Shown here in pieces: positions 28,601-48,790 of a DNA stretch of 64,000 nt; within the stretch, counting starts at the first letter, position 1, and every line of letters starts with the position of its first letter. Source of the DNA: Oleiphilaceae bacterium. Its GTDB lineage: Bacteria > Pseudomonadota > Gammaproteobacteria > Pseudomonadales > Oleiphilaceae. Made by a program: the position numbers and the translations under genes. The notes beneath the pieces are model-generated. The model had not been told where the DNA came from, searched no databases, and saw only the letters and a list, made by a program, of their open reading frames with translations. The stretch lies in NCBI GenBank assembly GCA_965230795.1, contig OZ246020.1, forward strand, positions 1,554,585-1,618,584, read 5' to 3'.

Positions 28601-28890
28601 GGGGTATCAAGTGTCGAGCTGAATAATTCTGTGTGACTTGTATCGGCTTTTTTTGTTTTGATTGCTTTCCTTTCTGTTTTTTTTGCTAACTTAATTGCGC
28701 TGCTCGCAGCTTTCCAGGGATGAATTGCCTGTCTGAAAACACGGATGTACTTGATCTTGATTTGTTATTTTTAGTTTTCATCGTATTCGGTCATTTTTTA
28801 TAGCGGGTGCTCCCCTTTTATATGTCCAGTAGAATGCGCTCATTAAAAATTACATGTAAAATGTTGAAATATTACATGTAATAAAATATA

Positions 28891-29556
28891 GTGGTTTCCA
28901 TGAAAGCAAAATCATCTGCACATTATCAGCGTGAATATCGCAAACGCCTGCGAGAGCAGGGTTTGGTTAAAAAGGAGGTGTGGATACTTCCGGAAAACGC
29001 GAAGCGCCTTTCTGCCTACGAGAAAGTGCTTCGGTCGCGTGTTTCGGGGGAGTCTGCCCAGTTTGATTTTCAATTAGGAGTGAGTGGAATGAGCAATGAT
29101 TCAGATAGTGTCTTGAAAGCCTGGACGACTGAGGGCTTGTTGGATGCCTTGGGTAAGGAGTCCTTGGTTAGCAGTGGCCAGGCAAGGATAGAATTAATTG
29201 ATGGGTTGGAGTCAACGCTGCTGATCGAGATGAAAGAGTATGGAGACCTTCCTGTATTTCTGACGGTTTCCGGTGAGCAGATTATTGTTGAGGCTGTCAT
29301 GTGGTCAGTGGATGAAGTGACCGATGTGGCCGCATTTAACGATGCGATTCTGCGGACTCATAAATTTTTTCCTTTATCCACAATCAGTTTGGACAAGGTC
29401 GGTGAAGAAGGAGATTACTATCACATGTTCGGGGCGTTGAGCTCGACATCTCTGCTCTCCAACGTGGTGTTTGAAATTGAAGTTTTGGCAAGCAACGTAA
29501 TTCAGGCAACAGAAGCTTATAGTGAGTTTTTGTCCGTCCCTGTGGCCGCTAACTGA
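28891..29556 (+). CDS. hypothetical protein, first gene of the PspA-flotillin cluster (possibly DUF2170/YjfI-like)
   Basis: 221 aa, acidic, no TM. It directly precedes a PspA-like gene, as yjfI precedes yjfJ in E. coli. The basic N-terminus (HYQREYRKRLREQGLVKKEV) could bind nucleic acid. Confidence 0.45.
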   Translation: MVSMKAKSSAHYQREYRKRLREQGLVKKEVWILPENAKRLSAYEKVLRSRVSGESAQFDFQLGVSGMSNDSDSVLKAWTTEGLLDALGKESLVSSGQARIELIDGLESTLLIEMKEYGDLPVFLTVSGEQIIVEAVMWSVDEVTDVAAFNDAILRTHKFFPLSTISLDKVGEEGDYYHMFGALSSTSLLSNVVFEIEVLASNVIQATEAYSEFLSVPVAAN

Positions 29557-29574
29557 TAGCGAAGGAGTGATTAA

Positions 29575-30267
29575 ATGAATATATGGGCGAAAATGATGAC
29601 TGCGCTTCGTGGAGGTGTTAACGAGGCGGGTGAGGCTCTGGTGGACAGTCAGGCCCTAAGGATTCTGGACCAGGAAGTTCGTGAGGCTTCGCAGGCTTTA
29701 CAGGATTCCAAGAACAGCTTGGCTGAGATTATGGCTCGTCAAAAGGTCGCCGAAGAGAAGTGTGCGTCCTTTAAAAAACAGATCAAAGAACACGAGGGTT
29801 ATGCTATCAAAGCGCTCGAGAAGGCGGACGAGAGGCTGGCTCGTGAAGTGGCAGAAAAAATTGCTGATTTGGAAAGCCAGTGTAGTCAAGAGCAGGAGTC
29901 TGCTGATGGCTTTGCTGCAAGTGCAGAGAAGATGCGAATGGCCATCAAGCAAACAGAGCGTAACCTTAAGCGTTTGAAGCAACAGGTTGATACGGTCAAA
30001 GCCACTGAGAATGTTCAGCGGGCGCAGGCAGCAGTGGCTGAGCGTCACAGTGGCTCGCACTCAAAAATGAGGACAGCAATGGATTCACTTGATCGGATCA
30101 AAGATAAACAAGCGCTGAAGGCAGCGCAGATGGCTGCGGCGAGTGAGTTGGCAGAACAGACCTCCGACGTCTCGCTGCAGGCGAAACTTGAAGAAGCTGG
30201 CATCGCTGGAAGTGGCAGTAGTGCCGACGATATTCTGGAGCGCTTGAAGAGCAAAGCTTCTAAATAA
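29575..30267 (+). CDS. PspA/IM30-family protein (ESCRT-III superfamily)
   Basis: MNIWAKMMTALRGGVNEAGEALVDSQALRILDQEVREASQALQDSKNSLAEIMARQKVAEEK... An all-helical coiled-coil of 230 aa typical of PspA/YjfJ. Confidence 0.8.
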   Translation: MNIWAKMMTALRGGVNEAGEALVDSQALRILDQEVREASQALQDSKNSLAEIMARQKVAEEKCASFKKQIKEHEGYAIKALEKADERLAREVAEKIADLESQCSQEQESADGFAASAEKMRMAIKQTERNLKRLKQQVDTVKATENVQRAQAAVAERHSGSHSKMRTAMDSLDRIKDKQALKAAQMAAASELAEQTSDVSLQAKLEEAGIAGSGSSADDILERLKSKASK

Positions 30268-30298
30268 AACGTGAAAAATCAATAAGGAGGAGTCGGGA

Positions 30299-30988
30299 AT
30301 GTTTGCGATATTTTTGATGGATGACATGGATCCGTTTTACCAGAACATTGCGTCATTTCCGACTGTAATTTTTACCTTTCTATTATTGCTCGTCGTGCTT
30401 TACTGGTTGGTGGCAGTTTTGGGATTGATAGACATCGATGTGCTCGATTTTGATATACCTGAAGCAGATGGAATGGACATCAATCCAGATACGGGCTTGA
30501 CTAATGCCAACGTGCTGGCCGGGCTCATGCTGCGTTTTGGACTTCATGGTGTTCCGGTAACGATTATTCTGTCGTTCATCGCGTTATTTGGCTGGTTTGT
30601 TTGTTACTACGCAGTTCATTTTCTCATGGGGATCATTCCGGAGGGCTTGCTCGCTTTTCTGGCGGGTATCCCGGTTTTTTTTGCATCCCTTTATGTTTCA
30701 GTAATGGTAACGGCATTAGTAATCAAACCGCTGCGGCCACTTTTCAGCAAGGCGTCTCAAGACACCTTGAAAAGGGTACTGGGTCAGACGGCGATCGTTC
30801 GTACCTCGCGTGTTGACAATAATTTTGGGGAAGCAATTCTCGAGGATGGTGGCGCTGGTTTACTTCTCAAAGTGAGAACGATTGGCGAGACAACTTTCTC
30901 AAGGGGAGACAGGGTTGTGCTGCTTGAATATGACAAAGAAAAAAATACTTACCGTGTAATTTCTGAAGAAGAATTTGCCGGTAGCTAA
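30299..30988 (+). CDS. NfeD-like membrane protein (YqiJ/YuaF-like, flotillin partner)
   Basis: Four or five TM helices, then a C-terminal OB-fold NfeD domain (GQTAIVRTSRVDNNFGEAILEDGGAGLLLKVRTIGETTFSRGDRVVLLEYDKEKNTYRV). It immediately precedes the flotillin gene. Confidence 0.7.
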   Translation: MFAIFLMDDMDPFYQNIASFPTVIFTFLLLLVVLYWLVAVLGLIDIDVLDFDIPEADGMDINPDTGLTNANVLAGLMLRFGLHGVPVTIILSFIALFGWFVCYYAVHFLMGIIPEGLLAFLAGIPVFFASLYVSVMVTALVIKPLRPLFSKASQDTLKRVLGQTAIVRTSRVDNNFGEAILEDGGAGLLLKVRTIGETTFSRGDRVVLLEYDKEKNTYRVISEEEFAGS

Positions 30989-31025
30989 CAATCAAAAAAT
31001 TTAATCTGGTAATGGAGTAACCGTT

Positions 31026-32975
31026 ATGACCGAGAGTTTGCCGTTGTTGATGCCTATTCTATTTGGCGTCGGAATTTTCTTTATCATTTTGATGGGGTTG
31101 GCCGCGCTCTTCAAAGCTTTCTATATCAAGGTAGAGCAGGGCACAGCCCTTATCGTAAACGACATGTCGTCGAAACCGAAAGTGCATTTCACCGGCGCAC
31201 TGGTATATCCGATCATTTACAAAAAAGAGTTGATGCGCATTTCGCTTATCACTCTGGAAATAGATCGTCGAGGCAAAGATGGTTTGATCTGCGCAGACAA
31301 TATGCGAGCGGATATCACTGTCGCATTCTATCTGCGGGTGAATGAAACCGCTGAGGACGTTTTAAAGGTTGCCAAATCAATCGGTTCAAGTCGTGCTTCC
31401 GATAAAGACGCGGTCAATGAGCTTTTTAACGCGAAGTTTTCTGAAGCCTTGAAGTCGGTTGGTAAGCAGGTTGAATTTGTCCAGCTGTTTGAAAACAGGC
31501 AAAAGCTGAGAGATTCAATTGTTGAGTGTATTGGCAACGATCTGAATGGTTATGTTCTTGAGGATGTGGCCATTGATTATCTGGAGCAAACACCCAAGTC
31601 CGCTCTGGATCCTCACAATATTCTTGATGCGGAAGGTATTCGCAAGATTACAGAGCTCACCGCCACACAAAATGTACAAACCAACAATTATGAGCGAGAT
31701 GAAGAACTCGCCATCAAGAAAAAGAACGTTGAGACAGTGGAAGCGATGTTATCACTGGAGCGTCAGCAGGCAGATGCGGAAGCCAAACAGGAGCGTGAGA
31801 TCGCTACGTTGCGTGCGCGCGAAGAAGCTGAAACCAAGAAAGTCCAGGAGGAGCAGCGCAAGATTGCAGAGGAAACCACAATCAAGGTGGAGCAGGAGTT
31901 GCAAGTTGCTGCAGAGAACCAGAAGCGGGAAATCGAAGTTGCGGAACAGAATCGTCTTCGCGCCGTCGCGATTGAAGAAGAAAAAGTGGTTCGTGCTAGA
32001 GATCTGGAAGTCGTCGACAGGGAGCGTCAGGTTGAGCTGGACAAAATCGCCGCTGAAAAAGCCCTGGAGGTTGAAAAGAAAGAAATTGCCAACGTTATCC
32101 GTGAGCGAGTTGCAGTAGACAAAACGGTTGCGGTTGAAGAGGAGCGTATAAAAGAAGTACGTGAAGTCTCAGAGGCAGATCGACAGAAGCAAACGCAGGT
32201 GCTGGCTGCGGAGGCTGCGGCTGAAGAAGATAAAGTCAAGCAAGTAAAAGCCGCAGAGGCAGAGGAAATCGCGGCGAAACACAAAGCAGTCGAGATCACG
32301 ACGATTGCTCAGGCGGAGCTCGAGGAAGCAGCCAAAAAAGCGGATGCGAAGAAGAAATTGGCCGAGGGTACACAGGCAGAAAGGGCCGCGCCAGGCTTGG
32401 CTGAAGCAAAAGTACAGGAAGCGAAAGCGGCTGCCCTGGAGAAAGAAGGACGTGCTGAAGCGGAAGTTATAAGAGCCAAAGGTGATGCAGAGGCGGATGC
32501 CTTGTCTGGTACAGGTAAGGCGCAGGCAGATGTGACCGCAGCACAGGGTGACGCTGAAGCACAAGCGGCCAGACAGTTAGGTCTCGCAAACGCAGAAGTT
32601 ACTCGTGAGCAGTTTAAAGCGGAAGCCGATGGTTTGGTTGAAAAGTTTGAGGCCATGAACACGATGAGTGAGGATGCTCGAGAGCACGAAGAGTACCGAA
32701 TGGGACTGGAGACTGCGCTGAAAGAGGCATTGGCATCTATCGAGGCTGGTAAAGATATCGCTAAAGAAAATGCCGAAGTGCTTGCCGTGGCCCTGCAGAA
32801 GGCGAAGATTGATATCGTTGGTGGTGAAGATCACTTCTTCGATAATTTCGCCAAGTCACTTTCAATTGGTAAGGCGGTAGATGGTCTGGCCGGTAAGAGT
32901 GATACGATTCAGTCACTGATCGATAGGGTGATTAGCGGCAAGAAGCCGACGGTTGTGGACGCAGAAAACGACTAG
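31026..32975 (+). CDS. flotillin-like SPFH/band-7 protein (FloT/YqiK-like) with long EA-rich coiled-coil
   Basis: N-terminal TM hairpin; SPFH domain (QGTALIVNDMSSKPKVHFTGALVYPIIYKKELMRISLITLEIDRRGKDGLICADNMRADITVAFYLRV). Extended flotillin E/A repeats follow (AEAKQEREIATLRAREEAETKK...). Confidence 0.85.
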   Translation: MTESLPLLMPILFGVGIFFIILMGLAALFKAFYIKVEQGTALIVNDMSSKPKVHFTGALVYPIIYKKELMRISLITLEIDRRGKDGLICADNMRADITVAFYLRVNETAEDVLKVAKSIGSSRASDKDAVNELFNAKFSEALKSVGKQVEFVQLFENRQKLRDSIVECIGNDLNGYVLEDVAIDYLEQTPKSALDPHNILDAEGIRKITELTATQNVQTNNYERDEELAIKKKNVETVEAMLSLERQQADAEAKQEREIATLRAREEAETKKVQEEQRKIAEETTIKVEQELQVAAENQKREIEVAEQNRLRAVAIEEEKVVRARDLEVVDRERQVELDKIAAEKALEVEKKEIANVIRERVAVDKTVAVEEERIKEVREVSEADRQKQTQVLAAEAAAEEDKVKQVKAAEAEEIAAKHKAVEITTIAQAELEEAAKKADAKKKLAEGTQAERAAPGLAEAKVQEAKAAALEKEGRAEAEVIRAKGDAEADALSGTGKAQADVTAAQGDAEAQAARQLGLANAEVTREQFKAEADGLVEKFEAMNTMSEDAREHEEYRMGLETALKEALASIEAGKDIAKENAEVLAVALQKAKIDIVGGEDHFFDNFAKSLSIGKAVDGLAGKSDTIQSLIDRVISGKKPTVVDAEND

Positions 32976-33065
32976 GGGTAATCCTCCTGAACTGTCCGAA
33001 TGGCAAGTTGGGTGTCTTTGAGATTCTCGACTTGTTTCCACCATCGTTAAAAAAGGAAAAAGTTC

Positions 33066-36000
33066 ATGGAACAGCATGATCTGTCGGCTGACAATGGAGC
33101 CAATTTAGTTGATCAAGCCGTTGCAGAAGGTGGTGCTTACGAAGTAATCCGCAAGCGCCTGGTTCAACAAAGCAAGCAGTTGTCAGATGTTACCTCTGCG
33201 TTAAATGCCGGTCGCCTGAATGAGTTCGGCAGTTCGGACATGGAAGTGATCGGTCGAGTACGGGTGCGTACCGAGAATAACTGCATCGCCAGGGATATTG
33301 TTCAGGTGGGGCCTCACCTGCTGTTCGGATATAACGTTTTCATCGGATTGAAAAAAGAAACTGCGGTTAGTGATGTATTTGCTCTTTTTGATGTCAAACA
33401 GACGGAGCAGGGTTTTGATCTCGAATCTGTCGACTTGGATAATTCTTTCCTGGCACATCCGGGGTTCGTCAACGACTTTGATGAACTGTATCGCTATTAC
33501 AAAAATACGCGCTTAATCCAGTTGCGGGTCAAGGACGGAAAGCTGCTCGCGGGTTTCCAGATTGGTGAGCGTCTCAGTGATGTGCGGGTTTTTCGCTGGG
33601 CTTTGTCTCCTGATGGCCAGGTTGAATATATTGACAATCGTGGTGAAAGGGATCTTGAGTTACCTTCACCCTACGATTTTGAATGGACGTTTACAACAAG
33701 GGATGACAGCGTTCAGGGGCGCCATCCCCATATTAATGTGCTCGATACGGTTTTTGTTGAGACCACTGATGGCGATTTGACCATTAAGGTAGAAAATAAC
33801 ACGGAAAATGGTCTAGGGATTTATAGCGAGCCTGTGGAAGACAAAACCCAATCTTTGGATGATGCCCAGATTGCCTATGCGAGCGTAGGCGGATTGATAC
33901 TTCTGAAGATAAGACCCTATCGGGAGGAGGCTTGGCGTTATCTTATTTTTAACACTGTCACTCAGGAAGTCGTGCGACAGGATGCGATTGGTGAATCATG
34001 CGTCCAGTTACCTGAGGATCACGGCATCATTTTCCCAGGCGGTTATTATTTGCAGTCGGGTGAGAAGAAGGCGTTTGATGATGGTGTGACGGGGCTTAAA
34101 TTCAAAAGAGTGCTGCGGTCTCCCAACGGCGAGGACGTGTTATACGTCTTTTACCAACCGGAAGAGGGTATGGTCGGTCTTTTCGCCTACAACCTGATCG
34201 AAAAGCAATTACAGAATCCGGTTTATGGACACGGCTATGCCTTGGCAGAGGACGGTAGCCTGGTTATTTTTCAAGCTGAGGAAGAACCAACCAGAGTGCA
34301 TCCCATGCAGATCTGGAAAACCCCGTATGAGAGTGTGGAGCATGCGAGTAAAGCTCCTCCAAGTCAGACGTTTTTCGGGCGTATCGGTAACGCAGAGCTG
34401 GTTCGTGGAATCTCCGATCTCTACAGTATTTGTCGTCTGGTCGACAATCAGTCAGTGTCGCTGCGGCAATACGAAGAGCTAAGCAGAGCGGCGAAAAAAA
34501 TCTTCGATGATCATTACTGGTTGGAGGAGGCTGAGACCAGTAAGATCGCTTCATGTGTCAGGGATATATGTGCTACTTCGGAGCTGGTCATTGATGAGTT
34601 TGAGAAGGTTGAGAGCATTCGGGAACAGTCTGCCAAAACCATGTCTGAAGCTTTTCACGATCAGGAGACGCTGCTCGCCGAAGCGCGGCCCGATAACTGG
34701 GAGCTTGCAGAAGAGTATGTGGATGCGTTGAGCAAAGTGCGTAAACAGCGCGGTCATTTGGTGGGTATCAAATCGCTGCGCTACATCGATGTTGCGCGCA
34801 TCGAGGCGATGGAGAATGAGCTGACAGAGAGGGAGCATGAGCTCACGCAGGCGACGGTTGAGTTTCTGTCTGATGAAAAAGCCCTTAATCCCTATCATGA
34901 AAAAATTGCGGGTCTCCAGGCCGATATTGATAAATCCGAGACCAAGGCTGAGTTGTCCCCGTTAATCGAGGCCGTTGAAAAAACTGCCGCGGGTCTGGAT
35001 CTGCTCTCGGAAATCATGGGGGCACTTAAGGTAGATGATGCGACTGTTCGAACTCGCATCATTGATGCTGTCACTGAGGTTTACGCAAAGCTAAACCAAA
35101 CTAAAGCCGCTGCAACGCGGAAGAGCAAATCTCTTGGTTCGTCGGAAGCGGTTGCCCAGTTTTCTGCTCAGTTCAAACTTTTTTCACAGACCATTGCCAA
35201 TGCACTTGGGGTTTCCAACACTCCTGAAAAGTGCGATGAACAGTTATCGCGCCTGTTAATTCAACTAGAGGAATTTGAAAGTCAATTCAGTGATCATGAC
35301 CAGTTTCTCGCGGACATCATGGAGAAGCGGGAAGAGGTCTATGAATCCTTCGAATCCCATAAACAGCAACTCTTGGATGAGCGACAGCGCAAGGCTCAGA
35401 CCCTGGCCGATGCGGCAAACCGTATTCTGGGCAACATAGAAAAGCGCTCGCTGAAGTTCACCGAGAAAGACGATTTAAATACCTATTTCGCTTCAGATGC
35501 CCTGGTTATCAAAGTGCGCGAGCTGGTTTCTGAATTGCGGAATTTGGACAATGCAGTCAAAGCTGACGATTTGGAATCTCGTTTCAAGGCGATCAAAGAA
35601 CAGTCACTACGATCCCTGCGCGACAAAACAGAGATCTATGAGGCGGGTGGAAATGTCATCAAGTTGGGGCCTAGACATCGCTTTTCCGTGAATACCCAAG
35701 ACCTGGATCTTACCATCATTCCACGTAATGGGATTCTCAATATCCACCTGACCGGTACGGATTATTTTGAAGCTATTCATTATTCAGAACTGATGCAGCT
35801 CAAAGACTATTGGGACATGTCGCTCGAGTCTGAAACATCAGCAGTGTATCGTAGTGAGTACCTGGCATATCGTGTCATAGAGGCAGCACAGAACAACCAG
35901 CAGGGATTGAGCATGCCAGCTTTGATGCAGTCTATCAAAGATGATGAGTTTTCGGGCCTGGTGAAGGACTTTGCTGCCCCGCGCTATAAGGAAGGCTACG

Positions 36001-38468
36001 AAAAAGGCATTCACGATTATGATGCGACCTTGATACTAAAAGCCTTGCTGCCTTCTTTGCATATGGCAGAGCTGTTGAAGTATGACTCGACAAGCAGAGC
36101 CGTGGCACAGGTTTTCTGGTCCCACACGACTCGAGCTATAAAGGATAACAAAGATCGAAGAGTCCATGACCAATCCGCAGATGTCTGGTTGAAAACAGCC
36201 GTGACGTGGCCAGTCCGTGCCCGAGCTGCTATGCAGCTGAATAGCAGTCTGTCCAGTCGTAAAGCTGTAGATCTGTTGGCTCAGGAGATTCTTGATTACC
36301 TCAAGTCGTTTTTAGAAAAACATCCAATCGAAATTCCGAATCATACTATTAGACAGGCTGCTTACTATCTGGTTGACGAGTATGGTCGGGACGACTTTGC
36401 GTTCGTTACAAGTCAGTATGGTTTGGATTTGGTAGAAGAGCTGAAGCGCAGCACGAATGACTTAGCCTGGAATACCTTTGTAGCTTCTCTGCGTGAACTG
36501 GATTCAAACCCTGCCGAAAAGTGGAAAGTCGCTGAGGCTTGGCTGCAGGCGATGGTCGATTCGTTGCCACAAGACAACGAAACTCAGGCTAAGAAAGGTC
36601 GTTATCTTGCCGAGGCGATAGCTCTTCTTGTTGAGCCTGATAGCGTTCCGCGCCGGACCAGCAATGTGGAGCTTGAACTGCTTGTCGAAGGCTTGCTTGG
36701 CGAGCATGCTCGCATATCCAAACAGCGTATGGCTGTCGGAGTTGACGATTTTCTGTCCCGGATGAAACATCATTGTGAGGAAGTAATACCGGCCTATCAG
36801 CACTATCTTCGTACCCGTCAGGAGGTCATCTCAAAAGAGAGAGAGGCTTTGAGGCTGGAAGAGTTCAAAGCGCGGCCACTAAGTTCATTTGTACGCAACC
36901 GCTTGATCAATGAATCCTATCTTCCCTTGATCGGCGATAATCTGGCTAAACAAATGGGAACGGTCGGAGAAAACAAACGATCCGATTTGATGGGTCTGCT
37001 AATGATGATTTCGCCACCAGGTTATGGCAAAACGACATTGATGGAGTATGTCGCCAATCGCCTGGGCTTGATTTTCATGAAGATCAATTGCCCTTCCTTG
37101 GGGCATGATGTGTTGTCTCTGGACCCCCAGCAGGCTCCGAACGCAACGGCAAGACAAGAGCTCGAAAAGCTCAACCTGGCGCTGGAGATGGGAAATAATG
37201 TGATGCTTTATCTGGATGATATTCAGCATACTCATCCAGAATTTCTGCAGAAATTTATCTCCCTGTGTGATGGCACCAGACGTATTGAAGGTGTCTGGAA
37301 AGGGAAAACCAAAACCTATGATATGCGCGGACGCAAGTTCTGTGTGGTAATGGCAGGTAATCCCTACACGGAATCTGGTGAAGCCTTCAAAGTACCCGAC
37401 ATGCTGGCAAACCGGGCAGATATCTACAACCTTGGCGATATTCTAGGCGGCATGGATGAACAGTTTGCGCTCAGTTATGTGGAGAATGCTCTGACTTCAA
37501 ATGCTGTATTGGCGCCTCTTGCAGTCAGGGAAATGGGGGATGTTTACAAACTGATTGATATGGCAAAGGGCAAAGAAATTGCAACCACTGATCTGAGCCA
37601 CCAATACAGCGGTGCTGAAATTAGTGAAATCACAGAAGTTTTGAAAAAGATGTTTGTGATTCAGGACGTGGTTCTCAAGATCAATAAACAATACATAGCA
37701 TCCGCTGCTCAAAACGATAAGTACCGGACTGAACCCAGCTTCAAGTTACAGGGCAGCTATCGCAATATGAACAAAATGAGTGAGAAGCTTTCGGCTGTCA
37801 TGAACGATGCAGAGCTTATGCAGATGATTGAAGATCATTATCTAGGGGAAGCCCAGCTGCTGACTTCAGGCGCAGAAGATAATCTTTTGAAGCTTGCTGA
37901 ATTGCGCGGAAATATGACAGATGAGCAGTCAGCCCGCTGGCAAGAAATCAAACGTGATTTTCTTCGTGATAAAGCTATGGGAGGCGATAGCGCTGATGTG
38001 GGAGCAAAAGTCGTCGCTCAGCTCGTAGACATCGTAAGTGGACTGCGAGATCTCAAGGCTGTCGCGCAAGAGGCGGTTGAACGTGGTGACACAAAAGACG
38101 CGGAACAGGTGAATGAGACTCCGCGGCAGGACATGCTAACCCTGGAGCAGCTTTCTCGAGAAATGGACAAACTGGTTGGTGCTCTAAAGAGCCACCGACC
38201 AAACGTGGAAGTGGTAAACCAGCCGGTACCCGGCATCGACAAGATTCTTTCTGTATTGGCAGATTCCATTGAGCATAGTTTGATGCCCGTTGTTAAGAGC
38301 ATGGACAAGAAGCTCGATATTGATTTGCGAACGCATTACAAGTTGAGAGATGTGTCTGAACAGCTGAGGAATCTTGAGCATGCTATAGGGCTTGAGGATC
38401 ACAAGTCCGGAACAAGTTCTCTGCGCACGGATACGGAAGATTCGGATCTCCAAAGCCGGGAAGAATAG
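33066..38468 (+). CDS. giant (1800 aa) multidomain protein with AAA+ ATPase of the AAA_5 (MoxR/dynein/McrB-like) type near the C-terminal third
   Basis: RBS aaaaggaaaaagttcATG. Walker A MMISPPGYGKTTLMEYV; Walker B VMLYLDDIQHTHPEF; sensor/arginine region FCVVMAGNPYTESGEAFKVPDMLANRADIYNL. The N-terminal ~450 aa are a beta-rich globular region, followed by about 700 aa of helical and coiled-coil sequence. No TM segments. Confidence 0.7.
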   Translation: MEQHDLSADNGANLVDQAVAEGGAYEVIRKRLVQQSKQLSDVTSALNAGRLNEFGSSDMEVIGRVRVRTENNCIARDIVQVGPHLLFGYNVFIGLKKETAVSDVFALFDVKQTEQGFDLESVDLDNSFLAHPGFVNDFDELYRYYKNTRLIQLRVKDGKLLAGFQIGERLSDVRVFRWALSPDGQVEYIDNRGERDLELPSPYDFEWTFTTRDDSVQGRHPHINVLDTVFVETTDGDLTIKVENNTENGLGIYSEPVEDKTQSLDDAQIAYASVGGLILLKIRPYREEAWRYLIFNTVTQEVVRQDAIGESCVQLPEDHGIIFPGGYYLQSGEKKAFDDGVTGLKFKRVLRSPNGEDVLYVFYQPEEGMVGLFAYNLIEKQLQNPVYGHGYALAEDGSLVIFQAEEEPTRVHPMQIWKTPYESVEHASKAPPSQTFFGRIGNAELVRGISDLYSICRLVDNQSVSLRQYEELSRAAKKIFDDHYWLEEAETSKIASCVRDICATSELVIDEFEKVESIREQSAKTMSEAFHDQETLLAEARPDNWELAEEYVDALSKVRKQRGHLVGIKSLRYIDVARIEAMENELTEREHELTQATVEFLSDEKALNPYHEKIAGLQADIDKSETKAELSPLIEAVEKTAAGLDLLSEIMGALKVDDATVRTRIIDAVTEVYAKLNQTKAAATRKSKSLGSSEAVAQFSAQFKLFSQTIANALGVSNTPEKCDEQLSRLLIQLEEFESQFSDHDQFLADIMEKREEVYESFESHKQQLLDERQRKAQTLADAANRILGNIEKRSLKFTEKDDLNTYFASDALVIKVRELVSELRNLDNAVKADDLESRFKAIKEQSLRSLRDKTEIYEAGGNVIKLGPRHRFSVNTQDLDLTIIPRNGILNIHLTGTDYFEAIHYSELMQLKDYWDMSLESETSAVYRSEYLAYRVIEAAQNNQQGLSMPALMQSIKDDEFSGLVKDFAAPRYKEGYEKGIHDYDATLILKALLPSLHMAELLKYDSTSRAVAQVFWSHTTRAIKDNKDRRVHDQSADVWLKTAVTWPVRARAAMQLNSSLSSRKAVDLLAQEILDYLKSFLEKHPIEIPNHTIRQAAYYLVDEYGRDDFAFVTSQYGLDLVEELKRSTNDLAWNTFVASLRELDSNPAEKWKVAEAWLQAMVDSLPQDNETQAKKGRYLAEAIALLVEPDSVPRRTSNVELELLVEGLLGEHARISKQRMAVGVDDFLSRMKHHCEEVIPAYQHYLRTRQEVISKEREALRLEEFKARPLSSFVRNRLINESYLPLIGDNLAKQMGTVGENKRSDLMGLLMMISPPGYGKTTLMEYVANRLGLIFMKINCPSLGHDVLSLDPQQAPNATARQELEKLNLALEMGNNVMLYLDDIQHTHPEFLQKFISLCDGTRRIEGVWKGKTKTYDMRGRKFCVVMAGNPYTESGEAFKVPDMLANRADIYNLGDILGGMDEQFALSYVENALTSNAVLAPLAVREMGDVYKLIDMAKGKEIATTDLSHQYSGAEISEITEVLKKMFVIQDVVLKINKQYIASAAQNDKYRTEPSFKLQGSYRNMNKMSEKLSAVMNDAELMQMIEDHYLGEAQLLTSGAEDNLLKLAELRGNMTDEQSARWQEIKRDFLRDKAMGGDSADVGAKVVAQLVDIVSGLRDLKAVAQEAVERGDTKDAEQVNETPRQDMLTLEQLSREMDKLVGALKSHRPNVEVVNQPVPGIDKILSVLADSIEHSLMPVVKSMDKKLDIDLRTHYKLRDVSEQLRNLEHAIGLEDHKSGTSSLRTDTEDSDLQSREE

Positions 38469-38479
38469 GGCATTCCAGA

Positions 38480-39073
38480 ATGTTCCCCGGTCTTTGGCTC
38501 AAATTCAGGCTGCTCATTTGTTTGTTAGCGGTCATGATTGGGGTTCATGCGGTGAATATGACGCTGGACGGACAGCTTATTCAATACGGGATTATTCCAA
38601 GGTCAGAGGAACATTGGTTTCATGTGTTCATCTCACCTTTCATTCATGTTGATCACGTTCATTTGCTTAACAATTTGTTCGGGCTGGCAATATTCAGCGT
38701 TCTTTGCCTAATGCGTTCGGTAGGACTGTATATCCTCTGCAGTATTTTTGTTATCACCTCAACAGGTTTATTGGTGTGGTTGTTCGCTCGCAGCGCCATT
38801 CACCTTGGTGCTAGTGGTTGGATATTTGGTTTATGGAGTTTTGCCATTGCGATTGCCTGGTTTGATCGGAAATTGATAAACATTGTTTCCAGTTTTCTGG
38901 TGGTCTTTTTATATGGGGGGATGATTTACGGCGTATTGCCTAGTGATCCAAATGTTTCTTTTGAAGCTCATCTTTTTGGCGCTTTGTCAGGTGCGTTGTT
39001 TGCATTTTTTTATTCAGTGTATGTGAAAGCCACGCGGCGTTCTCAATCACGGTCTTCAGTGGCGGGGAACTGA
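38480..39073 (+). CDS. rhomboid-family intramembrane serine protease
   Basis: Six TM helices; catalytic GxSG (IHLGASGWIFGL) in TM4 and His (AHLFGALSGALFAFF) in TM6. Confidence 0.75.
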   Translation: MFPGLWLKFRLLICLLAVMIGVHAVNMTLDGQLIQYGIIPRSEEHWFHVFISPFIHVDHVHLLNNLFGLAIFSVLCLMRSVGLYILCSIFVITSTGLLVWLFARSAIHLGASGWIFGLWSFAIAIAWFDRKLINIVSSFLVVFLYGGMIYGVLPSDPNVSFEAHLFGALSGALFAFFYSVYVKATRRSQSRSSVAGN

Positions 39074-39075
39074 AA

Positions 39076-39924
39076 GTGCTTGCTTGGCTGATTGAAAAGA
39101 TAAAAGACTATTCCTCGTTCACCGATTCCAAGGTGATCATTCAGTGGCAGGCTGGATGGTCTGACTTTTTGAGTGAAACGGTAACGTTTTATCGAACGCT
39201 AGACTCCGAGGACAAGAGAGTGTTCGAGGAACGCGCTCGACTGTTTCTGGAAACCACGACTATTGAAGCTGGACAGTTTGAAGTGAGTGATGAAGATCGC
39301 TTGCTGGTTGCGTCGAGTGCGGTGATTCCTGTTTGGGGTTTTCCGGATTGGCATTACTTTAATGTCAGTAAGGTGTTTCTATTGCCTGCATCGTTTAACG
39401 AGCGTTTCGAATGTGGTCAGCCCGATTCTGTGATCACCGGAATGGTGGGTAGCGGCCCTATGTCGGGAAAGCTTGCTCTGAGCCGTGCTGCTTTGCATCA
39501 GGGTTTCAAGAATGACGAGGACAAGCACAACGTGGGCATTCATGAGTTTGTGCATCTGGTGGACATGGCCGATGGCGATTGCGATGGGTTCCCGGAGCGG
39601 CTTAAGAAATATGCCTACTCGATTCCATGGTTTGAGCTTGTAGAGAAGAAAATTAGCGGGATCGAGACGCGTCGTAGCAATATTCGCGACTATGGTGCTA
39701 CCAACAAAGCAGAGTTTTTGGCCGTCGCATCAGAGTACTTTTTTGAACGGCCCGAAATGATGCAGAAAAAGCATCCTGAGCTTTATCAGGCACTGTCCGA
39801 TTTCTACCAACAGGATGTAATGCGAATTGCTTTGGATATCAGGCCCAGAAAGAAGGCTACTTGTCCATGTGGGAGCGGTAAGAAATATAAACACTGTTGC
39901 ATGAAAAAAATTCAGCGCAAGTAA
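39076..39924 (+). CDS. MtfA-like zinc metallopeptidase (peptidase M90) fused to C-terminal SEC-C zinc-binding motif
   Basis: HExxH (GIHEFVHLVDMADGDCDGFPE) and an MtfA-type C-terminal block (AEFLAVASEYFFERPE...LYQALSDFYQQD). The final residues CPCGSGKKYKHCCMKK are a canonical SEC-C motif. GTG start directly after the rhomboid stop. Confidence 0.8.
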   Translation: MLAWLIEKIKDYSSFTDSKVIIQWQAGWSDFLSETVTFYRTLDSEDKRVFEERARLFLETTTIEAGQFEVSDEDRLLVASSAVIPVWGFPDWHYFNVSKVFLLPASFNERFECGQPDSVITGMVGSGPMSGKLALSRAALHQGFKNDEDKHNVGIHEFVHLVDMADGDCDGFPERLKKYAYSIPWFELVEKKISGIETRRSNIRDYGATNKAEFLAVASEYFFERPEMMQKKHPELYQALSDFYQQDVMRIALDIRPRKKATCPCGSGKKYKHCCMKKIQRK

Positions 39925-39956
39925 TGGTGGCAACAAATACTCTAAAGGAGACGGTG

Positions 39957-40502
39957 ATGAAATGTCCCCAATGCAAAGGTTATGAGCTTGAGCCGAAAGA
40001 ACTGGAGCCAGGTCTGATTGTTGGTGCCTGTTCGAAATGTAATGGTACCTTGGTATCACTGATGAACTATCGCTATTGGGCGGATCAGCAGGGCAGTCAC
40101 GCGTTAGCTGAGCCGCTCGAAAACGATGACGTATCGGAAGCTGAAGATAATGCAAAGGCTCAGGTCTGTCCCAAATGTGCCAAGTTGATGACAAAGTTTC
40201 AGATCGGTGCGGAATCTTCGAACCGCTTGGACCTTTGTACGGGATGTGATGAGGCATGGCTCGATAAGGGTGAATGGAAGTTATTGAAGCAACTGGATCT
40301 GGCAGATAAATTGCCCTCAATTTTTACCGACGCCTGGCAACGTAATATCCGGTTGGCGAGGCAGGAAAAACTGCACAAGCGACGATACGAAAAATTGTTG
40401 GGAACTGATGACTTCACAAAACTGAATGAATTCAAACAATGGCTCGAACTGCATCCTGAAAGAGAACAAATTAAGCAGTATTTGATAACGAAACTGGATT
40501 AG
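39957..40502 (+). CDS. double zinc-ribbon protein
   Basis: CPQCKG...CSKCNG and CPKCAK...CTGCDE pairs, each CxxC-N17-18-CxxC, with a helical C-terminus. Start at the ATG 6 nt after AAGGAG. Confidence 0.55.
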   Translation: MKCPQCKGYELEPKELEPGLIVGACSKCNGTLVSLMNYRYWADQQGSHALAEPLENDDVSEAEDNAKAQVCPKCAKLMTKFQIGAESSNRLDLCTGCDEAWLDKGEWKLLKQLDLADKLPSIFTDAWQRNIRLARQEKLHKRRYEKLLGTDDFTKLNEFKQWLELHPEREQIKQYLITKLD

Positions 40503-40524
40503 CGGATTAAACAGGCAAAGCGAA

Positions 40525-40821
40525 ATGATTGAACTCAGAGAGTGGGTGTCTGCCATCATTTTCTGTACGGGCGTTGCAGGTATCTGTGTGCTTGTTGCCA
40601 ACGAACTGACTTGGTCACTTGTTTGGGCTAGCGTACTGTGCTTTGTATTGGCTTATTTGATCTGGCCAAGCAAAAGGAAAGGGCAGCGGCATGATGACAA
40701 TCGGTTGGCTGACATACTCGAAATACTGATTGAGTTTCCCATGGAGCTTTTTAGTTGGTTGATTCGCTTTTTGGGACGTCTTCTCGGCAGCAAAGGCGAA
40801 GGTATCGATATTGACATTTAA
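40525..40821 (+). CDS. small two-TM membrane protein
   Basis: 98 aa with two hydrophobic helices, between the zinc-ribbon and PLD genes on the same strand. Confidence 0.35.
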   Translation: MIELREWVSAIIFCTGVAGICVLVANELTWSLVWASVLCFVLAYLIWPSKRKGQRHDDNRLADILEILIEFPMELFSWLIRFLGRLLGSKGEGIDIDI

Positions 40822-40838
40822 AAGGATCATTCTGCGTT

Positions 40839-41537
40839 TTGAGTAAACATACGAGAATTGAAGAGTTCCTTTGCGTTTCGTTTGAAGATTTCAAGCTCTC
40901 CCAGGGCGAGAAATATTCGTTGAGAGAGCTTTTGGATAACTTGGGAGACAATGAGCTGTTGTCGTTTGCCCGTAATAAGGCCTTTGATTTATATCGGGAG
41001 TACCATATTGCCGAGTCTGGGGATTCTCTGCAGGGTCTCAACTGGTTGGAGAAAGTTATCAAAACGATCGATAACGTCAGGCTAAACAGCATCGAGTCCA
41101 ACTCTTACGCGTATTTTAGTCCAGGTCCTGAATGCGCCAGGCAGATCATCAACTGCTTGCATGGCGCAAGAGAAACCATTGATATATGCGTGTTTACGAT
41201 CTCCGACAATCATATTACTGACGCGATTCTATCAGCACACGAGACTGGGAAGAGTGTTCGCATCGTGAGTGATAATGATAAAGCAAAAGATAGTGGCTCC
41301 GATATTTACTATCTGGCTGAAAAAGGTGTGCCGGTCCGGCTAGATAAAAGTCCCTACCATATGCATCATAAGTTCGCGATTTTTGACCAAAATCTGCTGA
41401 TCAATGGCAGCTTTAATTGGACTCGAAGTGCCACCATGAAGAACGAAGAAAATATAACCGTTCTGCATGATTCAGGCTTGATCGGCTCTTTTTTATCTTC
41501 CTTTGAGGAATTGTGGTCAGAGTCGAAAGATATATAG
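40839..41537 (+). CDS. phospholipase D-like (single HKD motif, Nuc/endonuclease-type) protein
   Basis: HMHHKFAIFDQNLLINGSFNWTRSA is a canonical HxK(x)4D(x)6GSxN motif present in one copy (dimeric Nuc-like). The listed start is TTG; the real start is uncertain. Confidence 0.7.
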   Translation: MSKHTRIEEFLCVSFEDFKLSQGEKYSLRELLDNLGDNELLSFARNKAFDLYREYHIAESGDSLQGLNWLEKVIKTIDNVRLNSIESNSYAYFSPGPECARQIINCLHGARETIDICVFTISDNHITDAILSAHETGKSVRIVSDNDKAKDSGSDIYYLAEKGVPVRLDKSPYHMHHKFAIFDQNLLINGSFNWTRSATMKNEENITVLHDSGLIGSFLSSFEELWSESKDI

Positions 41538-41561
41538 ATCGACCTGTACAAGGGAGCGTAT

Positions 41562-41831
41562 ATGAAAACCAAATTGACTCTAATTGTTTTATTGGTCGCG
41601 TTACTATCTGGATGCGACAAAATAAACCGGGCTAGCCGCACTATGGATACAGTGCTTGGTGGTGATTTCAAAGTCTACGTGTTGGGGATCGATAAACCAT
41701 TTGTCGTCAACAATGGAAAAGTAACGTCGATACCGGAAAAGGGTTACTACGTTTTTTACCCGGTGATCGATGGTAGGGAACGCTTGGTACAATCCCCCAT
41801 TCAGATTACGACCATTGTAAAAATGGACTAA
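41562..41831 (+). CDS. small lipoprotein
   Basis: Lipobox LLVALLSGCDK; 89 aa. Confidence 0.5.
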   Translation: MKTKLTLIVLLVALLSGCDKINRASRTMDTVLGGDFKVYVLGIDKPFVVNNGKVTSIPEKGYYVFYPVIDGRERLVQSPIQITTIVKMD

Positions 41832-41893: not shown

Positions 41894-42484
41894 TTATGGG
41901 TTCATCTCTTTTTGACTGGTTTTATATTGTTCTACCGGAATGATCCGGTACCCGTCTGCAATGTCTTTAATCAATACACCCATGTTGCTAATTTTCTTCA
42001 TGCTGTAAATGTATGCGATCAGAAGCACCAGAGCCAATATGCATAGCCCCGCAATGGAAATGACTATCCACAGTTCAATTTTGGAAACTAGCGGAGATAT
42101 CGTTTCTTCTTTTATCTGAGCTAGTGAGTTTTGCAGTATCTTTGCAGCGGGTTTTTCAGTCTCTCTGATTGTGTTGGGAAGATTGTGTATTGTTGCATTG
42201 AGCTGCTTGCTGATGGCACCAACTTTATCCGCAAGTTCATTGATCAGTAAAAGTTGTTCGGGTGAACGGTCTCCCAGGTCTGCGGATATAGTGTTCAATG
42301 CTGTAGCAAGTTCATTGGTCGCTTTCCTGAGAATCACTCCGGATTCTTTGAGTTCCTTTATCTCGATATGGATCGATACGTATTTAGCTTCATCGTTTCC
42401 TTCGATCATGTTGCCATTACTTTCCGCTATAGAGCTGATGGATACAAAAGTCAGCGCTACCAGCATCAGGTGTTTCTTGATCAT
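41894..42484 (-). CDS. hypothetical exported protein with C-terminal TM anchor
   Basis: Signal peptide, helical periplasmic region, and a C-terminal TM (ELWIVISIAGLCILALVLLIAYIY). Confidence 0.4.
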   Translation of the reverse strand: MIKKHLMLVALTFVSISSIAESNGNMIEGNDEAKYVSIHIEIKELKESGVILRKATNELATALNTISADLGDRSPEQLLLINELADKVGAISKQLNATIHNLPNTIRETEKPAAKILQNSLAQIKEETISPLVSKIELWIVISIAGLCILALVLLIAYIYSMKKISNMGVLIKDIADGYRIIPVEQYKTSQKEMNP

Positions 42485-42501
42485 TGAGAATGCTCCGTTG
42501 T

Positions 42502-43662
42502 TTACGCTGGATTGAAAGAGCGGGAATCATCGACCGTTATTGTGCCTAGTGCTGGCGTGGAAAGGTCTAAACCTTCGCTGATTGAGGCGGCATAAACCGC
42601 TTCGTTCACTTTATAGACTGATCCCATTAAGTGTTTCCGTATTTTGGCCGTAACTTTGGTGTTGGGGATGCGCTCTAGGTAAATCCAAAGCGTATATTCG
42701 AGAGCGAAATCTCCCGCATTGGTCATTGCCCATTCGAAGCCTCGACTGGAGTTAACAGTTATGTCGGGCTTCTCCTTGCTGGCCTTCTGGGCCTGAGTGA
42801 ACATACGATCAACTCGCGAGGTGAATGCCATTAGTTGCTTACTTCTTTCTTCTTTGCTTTGACCTTCAAATGTTGGGTAGCCGATTTTGTATTTGAGAGC
42901 CTGGCGAATACCATCTGTACTGGCAATGCGACTCAAGTTGTCGATCTTATTGCGAATAAACTGGTTGTTACGTATCAGCGTTCTGTGATTGTTTCTTACG
43001 TCATACAGAATGACATAGATAAGTGTCACTTTGCTGATAACGTATTCGTCGGGATGGCCATCAACAAGAACGACATCGCCATCTACCAGCATTTCGGTAT
43101 TGAGAATAATGAGCCCGCTAATGATATCTGGTGCCCAAATGCTGCTGGTAAAGGCGAGAAAAGCGAAGACGATACCGAAAATTCCGGTTGTTTCCAGCAT
43201 GCTGTCAGCACCCCATATTTTTATCAGGGTGTATATCGTCGTAAGTACGATGACCATCAATAGAATGATGTCGACCAGACGACTGCTGTAACTGTCCAAA
43301 TACATGGTAGTGCCATCAAGGCTTTTTTCTATTCCGAAGCGTTTGCGCGACAGGTAGCAGCAAAGGCTATAAGCGAACAAACCGCCATACACTGTCATCA
43401 GGCTGAGGCCCACACGGATGAAGTAATGCTCGTAGCTTTTGTTCAGGCCCAGAAAAGTGAGATCGATGGCGTGGAGAATTAATACCAGAATATTAAGAGC
43501 TCTGAAGATACTGACTTTGGTCTCGTTTTCCTTGTCAGGATCGATGAGTCTCACGATAGGGCGAGCGCAAACCAGCAAGCCAATATTCAGGAGAAATACT
43601 GTGAGGTGCAGCAGCCATTGAGTATGACTCAGAGAAGGCAGAAAATCGGTAAGTGTATCCAA
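42502..43662 (-). CDS. MscS-family mechanosensitive channel
   Basis: N-terminal TM helices plus the MscS pore/beta domain (GIVFAFLAFTSSIWAPDIISGLIILNTEMLVDGDVVLVDGHPDEYVISKVTLIYVILYDVRNNHRTLIRNNQFIRN). Confidence 0.8.
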   Translation of the reverse strand: MDTLTDFLPSLSHTQWLLHLTVFLLNIGLLVCARPIVRLIDPDKENETKVSIFRALNILVLILHAIDLTFLGLNKSYEHYFIRVGLSLMTVYGGLFAYSLCCYLSRKRFGIEKSLDGTTMYLDSYSSRLVDIILLMVIVLTTIYTLIKIWGADSMLETTGIFGIVFAFLAFTSSIWAPDIISGLIILNTEMLVDGDVVLVDGHPDEYVISKVTLIYVILYDVRNNHRTLIRNNQFIRNKIDNLSRIASTDGIRQALKYKIGYPTFEGQSKEERSKQLMAFTSRVDRMFTQAQKASKEKPDITVNSSRGFEWAMTNAGDFALEYTLWIYLERIPNTKVTAKIRKHLMGSVYKVNEAVYAASISEGLDLSTPALGTITVDDSRSFNPA

Positions 43663-47578: not shown

Positions 47579-48082
47579 CTAAAACCGATAACTCATTGCC
47601 ACCTGGATACCATCTTCTTTAGGAGCGACTCTGACTTTTTTAGAGTTGATCTTTTTCCCTGTAATCTTTTCGATCGCCCATGAAGTTATAGCCATTCCAT
47701 GCCAATAGACCATGTTCTTTTGGAAACGCTCACGTTTGGAGTATTTAGGCTTCTTGAGCTCCCAGGCATTGTATTGGGCCATACTTAAAAACGATGTTCC
47801 CATTATTATGCTCTGTGTTTCGTTCTCGCCCGCGGCAAAGGCGAGAGGAGAGAGTAGGGTGCATACCCAACCGTAACCCTCTGGATGAGAGGCTGCCGAG
47901 GCAGCGTTGGCGGCTATGATCCCCTCCATTAGCGTGAACCCCAGTATGGCTTGTGGCAGGGAGAGTTCTTGCTTTTCTTGTCCGTTCGCCCAAGACGATG
48001 AACCAAAGAAAATCACCACAATAAGAAAAATATGTTTCATACAGACCTCATGAGAGTGTGAGACCCGGTGTTGCGGCCTCAC
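47579..48082 (-). CDS. hypothetical secreted protein
   Basis: Signal peptide (IFLIVVIFFGSSSWANG); 167 aa. Confidence 0.4.
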   Translation of the reverse strand: MRPQHRVSHSHEVCMKHIFLIVVIFFGSSSWANGQEKQELSLPQAILGFTLMEGIIAANAASAASHPEGYGWVCTLLSPLAFAAGENETQSIIMGTSFLSMAQYNAWELKKPKYSKRERFQKNMVYWHGMAITSWAIEKITGKKINSKKVRVAPKEDGIQVAMSYRF

Positions 48083-48094
48083 AATTAGATGTTT

Positions 48095-48790
48095 TCAAGA
48101 AGGGAGACGGGATTTGTGCTTCAGCCGCTCAAGGACAGCTTGTGCATCATGTTTTCCAGAGCGTATACCGGCCGATTTGACGCGTTGGTCCAAATCTTCT
48201 CCTTCGAGAGATTGGTCCACAGCGAGTAGCGCGTTGTTCAATGTTTGGTTTCGATGCTGTCGCTCTTGAATCGAACGAAGAGATTCATTGAGTTCAGTCA
48301 AAGCGCCATTTAAGCCCACCTGGCTTTTGCCATAGTTAAAACCAGATAATCGTTGCATCTCATTTGCCTTCAAAAGAACAAGATGTTGCTGATGGTTCCG
48401 GGTGACTCTGACCGCGTTCTTCAGATCTTTCTCTGTCCGATCTTCTAGAGCGTGAAGCTGCGAAAGTCGGTTTCTCATACTGCCAAGCGCGTCTTCGTCT
48501 TCAGCGATTTGCTCTGCCAAGGCATGGGCGAGCTCTGTGTCTTTCTCCAGCGCTTCCAGAGTTTGGGATTCGCGTCTTACGATTTCTGCCTCCTTTTCCT
48601 CTATTGAATCTTGTACGAGCGATATATCCGCTTTAATAGATGCCAGGTAATGTTTGCTCTGTTTGATCAGCGCTAAGGTCTCCCGTATTTCCTGCTCGAA
48701 GATCGGTATATCATTTCGGTTAATGAGCTCACGGACGGGCTCTTCCACTTTAGTTCGCATTAACAGTCTGAGTTTTGAATAGGTCGTCAT
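48095..48790 (-). CDS. PspA/IM30-family protein (second paralog, island-borne)
   Basis: 231-aa helical protein. The N-terminus (MTTYSKLRLLMRTKVEEPVRELINRNDIPIFEQEIRETLALIKQ) and overall heptad pattern match PspA/LiaH. Confidence 0.7.
   Translation of the reverse strand: MTTYSKLRLLMRTKVEEPVRELINRNDIPIFEQEIRETLALIKQSKHYLASIKADISLVQDSIEEKEAEIVRRESQTLEALEKDTELAHALAEQIAEDEDALGSMRNRLSQLHALEDRTEKDLKNAVRVTRNHQQHLVLLKANEMQRLSGFNYGKSQVGLNGALTELNESLRSIQERQHRNQTLNNALLAVDQSLEGEDLDQRVKSAGIRSGKHDAQAVLERLKHKSRLPS

Follow-up and report, generated by a model that had tools for sequence, protein, structure and literature searches.

A SEC-C-tailed M90 peptidase gene embedded as an accessory in a bac-type operon of an Oleiphilaceae bacterium

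The sequence analysed here is a stretch of 64,000 nucleotides (nt) from an Oleiphilaceae bacterium (GenBank assembly GCA_965230795.1, contig OZ246020.1, positions 1,554,585 to 1,618,584 of the forward strand), hereafter called the window. At 39076–39924 (+), it contains an open reading frame (ORF) with a GTG start, encoding a protein of 282 amino acids (aa) that combines a zinc peptidase domain of the M90 family with a SEC-C zinc knuckle at its C-terminus. The gene lies in a run of eleven same-strand genes (28891–41831) with intergenic gaps of 2–90 nt; the part at 28891–41537 is, judging from the predicted products, a homologue of the bacABCDEF cluster of Pseudomonas aeruginosa and belongs to an operon type that has already been described. 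The M90/SEC-C gene is embedded here as a part of this operon, as indicated by its position, by the short gaps to its neighbours (2 nt to an upstream rhomboid protease gene and 32 nt to a downstream Zn-ribbon gene) and by the retention of the arrangement on many independent contigs down to approximately 65% identity. Across related operons, the M90/SEC-C gene is a lineage-restricted guest that has been repeatedly lost or relocated, and the rhomboid gene is a general accessory of the operon type.

The Peptidase_M90 domain (residues 25–245; 39148–39810, +) matched Pfam PF06167 with E = 8e-59 and 199.6 bits (family cutoff, 26.2 bits) over profile positions 16–243 of 243, that is, nearly the full length. 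The zinc-binding and catalytic motif HEFVH (H156, E157 and H160; 39541–39555, +) aligned with the HEXXH motif of MtfA, and the EFLA motif (39712–39723, +), which aligned with the MtfA 'ECFA', corresponds to the gluzincin EXXA motif and supplies the predicted third zinc ligand, E213. Together, E213-F-L-A216 and H156-E157-F-V-H160 make up a complete gluzincin zinc site in line with that of MtfA, in which the EXXA motif spans residues 211–214 (PMC13482132). Among 89 homologues, H156, E157 and E213 were invariant and H160 was nearly invariant. Sequence searches of the PDB recovered MtfA of Escherichia coli (9srw, E = 5.8e-10) and of Klebsiella (3dl1/3khi, E = 2.3e-9). An AlphaFold2 (AF2) model based on an 89-sequence alignment, with a mean predicted local distance difference test score (pLDDT) of 69 and a predicted template-modelling score (pTM) of 0.59, was used for the fold match alone, an earlier model from a 20-sequence alignment (pLDDT 52) having been discarded. 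Foldseek ranked 3khi and 3dl1 at the top for this model (E about 2e-6, probability 1.00, TM-score 0.46–0.61), followed by anthrax lethal factor. Going by the predicted zinc ligands, the product would be an intact M90-family gluzincin peptidase. Because no transmembrane (TM) segment was predicted, the protein is presumed to be cytoplasmic, and it appears soluble. Two nearly invariant cysteines outside the SEC-C knuckle, C113 (39406–39417) and C169 (39574–39588), lie in the conserved blocks FECGQPDS and DGDCDGFPE, respectively; the MtfA segment aligned with the latter block, NGDRASGVP, contains no cysteine. A subfamily-specific second site for metal binding or redox chemistry may be formed by these residues.

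The SEC-C knuckle itself, CPCGSGKKYKHCC (residues 263–275, with the predicted ligands C263, C265, C274 and C275; 39862–39900, +), is preceded by the basic linker RPRKKA. It matched Pfam PF02810 over residues 262–277 (E = 1.4e-7; 31.6 bits, cutoff 20.4 bits), and the PDB sequence searches also found the SecA zinc-binding peptide 1ozb (E = 2.8e-4) as well as the C-terminal peptide of YchJ. The tail fits the published motif definition, the ligand set CXCX8C[C/H] with a conserved Ser and Tyr (10.1101/613315). S267 and Y271, both conserved, are the counterparts of S889 and Y893 of SecA, and 11 of the 13 core residues, including these two, were identical to those of the SecA zinc-binding domain. Searched in all six frames, the window contained no other motif of the CPCGSGKKYKHCC type, two poor CxC...CH matches aside. 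In SecA, this metal-binding domain interacts with SecB and with ribosomes, and the co-purification of phospholipids depends on it; SEC-C also occurs on methionine aminopeptidases (10.1101/613315). M90 is the second peptidase class, after methionine aminopeptidase, in which a SecA-type tail occurs, which bears on the possible docking partner of the tail.

The combination of the two domains is not rare, and it defines a large pre-existing subfamily. A missed stop codon as the origin of the fusion was ruled out, as the identical 282-aa product is present in public protein collections and the tail is in frame in 30 of 32 orthologues from related loci; the two exceptions are L092, in which the contig end cuts it off, and L014, which has no tail. 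A search of 5.8 billion proteins yielded 6760 matches, and about 90% of the best 120 of these (63%–82% identical) bore both PF06167 and PF02810. Some matches listed without SEC-C still have the motif (e.g., P0018, with CSCGSG). In a library of 50%-identity representatives, relatives numbered 3463 below E = 1e-3 and 170 below E = 1e-30, and the terminus CPCGSGxK[YF]KxCC was found in 39 of the best 150 representatives. Members of the subfamily carry source labels such as 'M90 family metallopeptidase' or 'MtfA', and a literature search found nothing treating M90 (MtfA) together with SEC-C. The protein itself is thus an unremarkable member of a large, automatically annotated and little-studied subfamily. 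A first-pass annotation of the window had called it an MtfA-type zincin fused to a SecA-like tail of a kind otherwise known from SecA and YchJ. Both domain calls were borne out, with the HEFVH motif intact, and the homology of the HExxH region to M90 was confirmed by the MtfA alignment, which places HEFVH on the MtfA HEXXH. The 'MtfA-type' label holds at the family level, but identity as an MtfA orthologue was ruled out, as the NCBIfam MtfA equivalog NF011939 gave 51.5 bits against a cutoff of 400, with a match confined to residues 147–250. The described range of the tail was too narrow; SEC-C is a promiscuous tail that is shared by methionine aminopeptidases and by this M90 subfamily.

Immediately upstream lies a gene for a minimal rhomboid protease (197 aa; 38480–39073, +; Pfam Rhomboid PF01694, E = 1.1e-18). 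In an alignment with GlpG of Haemophilus influenzae (2nr9), H61/N65 of the HxxxN motif, S112 in GASG and H164 in AHLFG were in register, and the protease appears catalytically intact by these residues. A hydropathy scan revealed five hydrophobic peaks, two of which overlapped, and the count of six TM segments was taken from the co-linear alignment with the six-TM core of GlpG. At the junction (39071–39078, +), the rhomboid stop codon TGA (39071–39073) is followed by AA and by the GTG start of the M90 gene (39076–39078), which agrees with the 2-nt spacing given in the first-pass annotation. A purine run, GGGGAA, lies just 5' of this start codon. The tight junction was conserved in relatives, in which the two genes were separated by an 8-nt gap or overlapped by 4 to 17 nt. 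This organisation suggests that the M90 gene is translationally coupled to the rhomboid gene.

The distribution of the two protease genes was surveyed in metagenomes by a scan starting from the C-terminus of the operon's ATPase, which yielded 80 loci and, after dereplication and with at least 3 kb of downstream sequence, 56 operons. The scan used exact peptide patterns and the best 80 loci; the sample is biased towards relatives of the window's ATPase. A five-gene core was conserved in most of the 80 loci, and the accessory genes varied. The rhomboid gene was present in 24 of the 56 operons (approximately 43%), in 21 cases just after the ATPase gene and in three between pspA and the NfeD-like gene. 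A PLD gene was found in 21 operons, a Zn-ribbon gene in 11 and the M90/SEC-C gene in six, and 23 operons contained none of these four. A rhomboid gene and then PLD, seen in 12 operons, was the most frequent accessory pattern. A rhomboid gene accompanied M90 in five of its six operons, an association that was not significant (Fisher p = 0.07) among loci that are phylogenetically non-independent, and 19 of the 50 operons without M90 had a rhomboid gene, typically with PLD directly after it. Conversely, the M90 gene directly followed the ATPase gene, with no rhomboid gene, in L006/L093, L085/86, L091 and L092. The order varied as well, with M90 preceding the rhomboid gene in L111 and a gene for a 2-TM protein intervening in L004. 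Insertion of the operon beside a resident M90 gene was considered and rejected, as the accessories on either side of the M90 gene recur in operons that lack it.

In reference genomes, 16 true M90/SEC-C orthologues were identified, of which only those of L003, L004 and L006 lie in the operon, the last of these without a rhomboid gene. The others adjoin genes for a CheW-response regulator, N-acetylglutamate synthase, LOG, M48, FKBP and metallo-beta-lactamase proteins, and no shared theme was found among the neighbours of these stand-alone genes. Among the contigs of five database relatives, the operon was accompanied by a rhomboid gene in L081, L082 and L083/84, lacked it in L085/86 and was itself absent in L087. 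Overall, the M90-in-operon arrangement was kept in relatives of 65%–83% identity (L003, L004, L006, L081-86, L088-93, L111, L133 and L150). In a neighbour-joining tree, the deep branches were all stand-alone, and the stand-alone orthologues L001, L002 and L087, which have no rhomboid gene and lie in unrelated contexts, were nested among the operon-linked ones. Because these nested orthologues stand alone, M90/SEC-C proteins can function without the operon. The best reading of these patterns is that the M90+SEC-C subfamily is ancestrally stand-alone and was recruited to the bac-type operon in one group of marine Gammaproteobacteria.

Two side observations concern the recruitment of the other accessories. 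The rhomboid gene between pspA and the NfeD-like gene was seen in more distant metagenomic loci (L155-L158 and L166), a position that shows independent or rearranged recruitment into the operon type. In the syntenic operon of L081, which also holds a BrnT/BrnA toxin–antitoxin insert, a 347-aa protein encoded downstream of PLD (13584–14627 of that locus) consists of two N-terminal Zn-ribbons fused to a rhomboid domain. Residues 3–115 of the window's Zn-ribbon protein aligned with these N-terminal ribbons (E = 2e-7), and the fusion may be taken as a Rosetta-stone hint tying the Zn-ribbon accessory to rhomboid function.

The core of the operon in the window begins with a gene for a BacA-like DUF2170 (CesT/Tir-like) protein (28891–29556, +; DUF2170, E = 1.1e-50), which scored 303.5 bits against the NCBIfam model NF050185, 'biofilm formation regulator BacA' (equivalog cutoff, 300 bits). 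It is followed by genes for a PspA/IM30 protein (BacB/YjfJ-like) of the ESCRT-III type (29575–30267, +; Pfam PspA_IM30, E = 3.6e-48), a 229-aa multi-TM protein with a soluble C-terminal domain (30299–30988, +), a 649-aa BacD-like protein with an N-terminal TM segment, a putative SPFH/flotillin-like domain and a long coiled coil (31026–32975, +) and a BacE-like ATPase of 1800 aa with the architecture DUF3686-DUF7902-classical AAA (33066–38468, +; Pfam E = 1.4e-206, 1.4e-27 and 8e-7, respectively). The 229-aa and 649-aa proteins gave no matches in single-sequence PDB searches or in Pfam up to E = 10, nor did the former in NCBIfam. The position and TM architecture of the 229-aa protein fit a YqiJ/YuaF (NfeD-like) partner as described for this operon type (PMC11237479), and we infer it to be a candidate for this role. 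For the 649-aa protein, a profile of 11 orthologues weakly matched human flotillin-1 (9bq2, E = 0.012) in a co-linear manner (residues 38–243 vs 9–226), the match to NCBIfam FloT was weak (E = 0.13), and a protein of this kind has been described for the operon type (PMC11237479). Downstream of the M90/SEC-C gene, the run continues with genes for a double Zn-ribbon protein (181 aa; 39957–40502, +; Zn_ribbon_TFIIB, E = 1.2e-7), a recurrent accessory by synteny; a small 2-TM protein (98 aa; 40525–40821, +), which had no family match and is conserved in L004, L088 and L089; a PLD/HKD-superfamily (NucT-like) protein (40839–41537, +; PLDc_2, E = 6.9e-28), an optional operon member; and a small lipoprotein-like ORF (41562–41831, +). 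Pfam describes DUF3686 as an 'ATPase involved in DNA repair', a name that is probably misleading, because the neighbours of the gene (PspA, flotillin-like, rhomboid and PLD) give no support for such a role; a literature search found no paper on DUF3686.

The operon type has been described as a CesT/Tir (DUF2170)-PspA system that further comprises a Band-7/flotillin protein, a TM protein of the YqiJ/YuaF-like kind, in some cases PLD, and a novel AAA+ ATPase, the N-terminus of which has a beta-propeller and a coiled coil (PMC11237479, Ravi et al.). In P. aeruginosa, reverse transcription PCR showed bacABCDEF to be one operon, and BacA exerts negative control over it (PMC10948618). Experiments have tied the operon to biofilm formation and virulence in this species. 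The main texts of these two papers mention no rhomboid, peptidase or free Zn-ribbon gene for this operon. The operon type is published and the M90+SEC-C subfamily was already present in databases; the searched papers appear to leave undescribed both the rhomboid as a frequent accessory and the lineage-specific addition of M90/SEC-C and Zn-ribbon genes.

Several further features were noted at the start of the operon and in its surroundings. The palindrome TTACATGTAA occurs twice (28850–28859 and 28872–28881) directly 5' of the bacA-like gene (28850–28892), its two copies flanking the -35 element of a sigma-70-like promoter (TTGAAA, 17 nt, TATAGT), and the pair looks like a candidate operator. 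At its N-terminus, the BacA-like protein is extended by approximately 50 aa of basic character, which gave weak matches to small plasmid repressors (UrfF and RepC). Together, the operator-like palindromes and the basic extension would be in keeping with negative autoregulation, as reported for BacA in P. aeruginosa. No sigma-54 consensus was found 5' of the bacA-like gene, where the number of matches equalled chance, and a terminator scan inside the operon yielded nothing convincing, with counts equal to those of shuffled controls. At about 28 kb, exactly at the start of the operon, the GC content drops from approximately 54% to approximately 47%; it remains low to the end of the window. Just past the operon lies a convergent gene pair (41894–43662, −), of which one gene encodes a coiled-coil protein (196 aa) with a TM segment at its C-terminus and the other a multi-TM protein (386 aa) that weakly matched the MscS beta-domain; this pair and the small lipoprotein-like ORF adjoin the operon in L089 too. 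About 6 kb downstream of the operon end are a second PspA/IM30-family gene (48095–48790, −; Pfam E = 1.3e-9) and an unknown 167-aa ORF (47579–48082, −). Further downstream, an IS3-type transposase gene (rve/rve_3; 52034–52852, +) and a phage-type integrase gene (53157–54281, +) are present. The flanks of the operon vary among related genomes, with, for example, a DUF885 gene upstream in L085.

With moderate confidence, we favour the explanation that the soluble M90 peptidase, tethered by its tail, serves as a modular accessory of a membrane-protein quality-control or remodelling operon of the bac type. In such a scheme, the rhomboid would clip, and the AAA+ ATPase would extract, damaged or surplus membrane proteins in patches organised by the flotillin-like and PspA proteins. 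The SEC-C tail might dock the peptidase at the membrane or the translation interface, or onto a partner encoded in the operon, and the docked M90 domain could then trim or degrade the cytoplasmically exposed peptides and tails so produced. The peptidase would be a modular add-on, dispensable to the core of the system and not tied obligately to the rhomboid. Several points weigh against this explanation. The M90/SEC-C gene is present in 6 of the 56 dereplicated operons, and stand-alone orthologues are nested among the operon-linked ones. The peptidase activity, the docking of the tail and the substrates are putative, and the flotillin-like and NfeD-like assignments rest on weak matches and the literature description. 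The AF2 model was poor at the catalytic helix (pLDDT < 50 over residues 150–185), and gives no reading of how the tail is placed with respect to the cleft. In addition, the physiological substrate of even E. coli MtfA is unknown, and the role established for MtfA lies in binding a protein, not in cleaving one (PMC13482132). The rhomboid and peptidase accessories hint that the bac/PspA-flotillin-AAA+ system handles membrane-protein turnover, and operons with and without these accessories provide natural variants for genetics.

The first-pass annotation had paired the two enzymes in a 'two-step regulated proteolysis module'. In a module of this kind, the rhomboid would cut a membrane-anchored factor and the M90 peptidase would finish the released fragment, leading to a signalling output. 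The 2-nt stop–start junction, the tight or overlapping junctions in relatives, the frequent company of a rhomboid gene in M90-bearing operons (five of six) and the intact catalytic residues of both enzymes all speak for such a cascade. Against it, each protease gene occurs without the other (M90 in the rhomboid-free operons listed above; rhomboid in 19 of 50 M90-less operons, sometimes between pspA and the NfeD-like gene), their order can be reversed (L111) or interrupted (L004), their co-occurrence was not significant, stand-alone orthologues have no rhomboid neighbour, and no gene for an anti-sigma factor or a transcription-factor substrate was found nearby. An obligate rhomboid-to-M90 cascade is not supported, because the two enzymes occur apart and stand-alone orthologues interleave in the tree, and a dedicated pair seems unlikely to us. 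The rhomboid and M90 genes are better viewed as independent, modular accessories of the bac-type operon, with a looser cooperation inside the operon being possible. Somewhat less doubtful, yet still improbable, is a housekeeping peptidase unrelated to the operon, for example a ribosome- or SecB-associated aminopeptidase, with its present position resulting from neutral drift in gene order. Such a role would suit the ancestral and most widespread state, which is stand-alone in heterogeneous contexts, the interleaving of operon-linked and stand-alone orthologues and the SEC-C tails of methionine aminopeptidases, which suggest ribosome tethering (10.1101/613315); it is at odds with the interior location of the gene, which has operon accessories on both sides at gaps of 2 and 32 nt, and with the retention of this arrangement to approximately 65% identity on many independent contigs.

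A regulatory role like that of MtfA was also considered, in which the protein, instead of degrading proteins in bulk, would mainly bind (titrate) or clip a regulator, such as the BacA-like repressor, and thereby tune operon expression. E. coli MtfA is an anti-repressor whose catalytic-cleft face wedges onto the DNA-binding domains of Mlc (PMC13482132), BacA exerts negative control over the bac operon in P. aeruginosa (PMC10948618), and in the window the BacA-like protein is extended by a basic N-terminal stretch, with two TTACATGTAA palindromes flanking the -35 element upstream of its gene. However, the protein falls far below the MtfA equivalog cutoff (51.5 bits vs 400), no Mlc/ROK regulator gene was seen among the scanned neighbours, M90 is absent from most bac-type operons, and the strict conservation of all catalytic residues argues for catalysis, which makes this role a doubtful one. 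An anti-phage or abortive-infection defence island, with the peptidase as its effector or activator protease, is very improbable. The PLD gene gave weak PADLOC matches to DrmC, DpdK and Mko-type PLDs, the SEC-C tail resembles the tails on defence E2 proteins in PADLOC, and the lower GC content and an integrase and an insertion sequence element 11–13 kb downstream would suit an island; in contrast, no PADLOC model matched any core gene, the matches being limited to the SEC-C tail and the PLD domain, and the operon has its homologue in the bac operon on the P. aeruginosa chromosome, a system with links to biofilm and envelope stress.

Among characterised proteins, MtfA (YeeI; 3dl1, 3khi and 9srw) resembles the M90/SEC-C protein in family and fold, with the nearly full-length PF06167 match, the HEXXH motif on the central helix, the EXXA glutamate and a conserved C-terminal SEYFF(E) block in common. 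It differs in that identity to the solved MtfA structures was approximately 22%–23% in structural alignment, that the M90/SEC-C protein alone has the SEC-C tail and the nearly invariant C113 and C169, and that the genomic context here is a PspA/flotillin operon. The tail corresponds to the C-terminal metal-binding domain of SecA, also found in YecA, YchJ and some methionine aminopeptidases, sharing the CXCX8C[C/H] ligand set, the conserved Ser and Tyr, the basic residues and the position behind a flexible basic linker at the very end of the chain; here, however, it is borne by a zinc peptidase rather than a translocation ATPase. Compared with the P. aeruginosa bacABCDEF cluster and the CesT/Tir-PspA-Band7/flotillin-AAA+(beta-propeller)-YqiJ-PLD operon (Ravi et al. 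2024), the window has the same gene order on one strand and shares the BacA equivalog, PspA, the giant DUF3686/AAA ATPase and PLD, together with a candidate NfeD-like multi-TM protein and a putative flotillin-like protein. In the window, however, rhomboid, peptidase and free Zn-ribbon genes sit between the ATPase and PLD genes, and no counterpart was found to the sigma-54 promoter proposed for P. aeruginosa bacA.

An analogy can also be drawn with membrane proteolysis systems. In Bacillus subtilis, the rhomboid YqgP is an adaptor of the AAA+ zinc protease FtsH (PMC7231995), and the mitochondrial 'SPY' complex consists of PARL and YME1L brought together by an SPFH protein of the stomatin-like type (PMC10818064). 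By this analogy, the optional rhomboid, M90/SEC-C and Zn-ribbon proteins might turn the bac-type operon into an SPFH-scaffolded proteolytic hub, a split and modular analogue of FtsH-HflKC-YqgP or of mitochondrial STOML2-PARL-YME1L; such an extension is speculative, and we regard it as unlikely. A flotillin cage would concentrate clients, the rhomboid would clip them, the giant AAA+ ATPase would extract them, the tail-docked M90 peptidase would degrade the released pieces, and PspA, in an ESCRT-III-like manner, would seal the membrane. The system in the window differs from YqgP-FtsH and SPY in that its protease genes are optional and its ATPase (DUF3686-AAA) and M90 peptidase are separate, unrelated polypeptides instead of an FtsH-type M41 fusion. 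What it has in common with them is the set of activities, with a rhomboid, an AAA+ ATPase, a zinc metallopeptidase and a putative SPFH scaffold encoded together.

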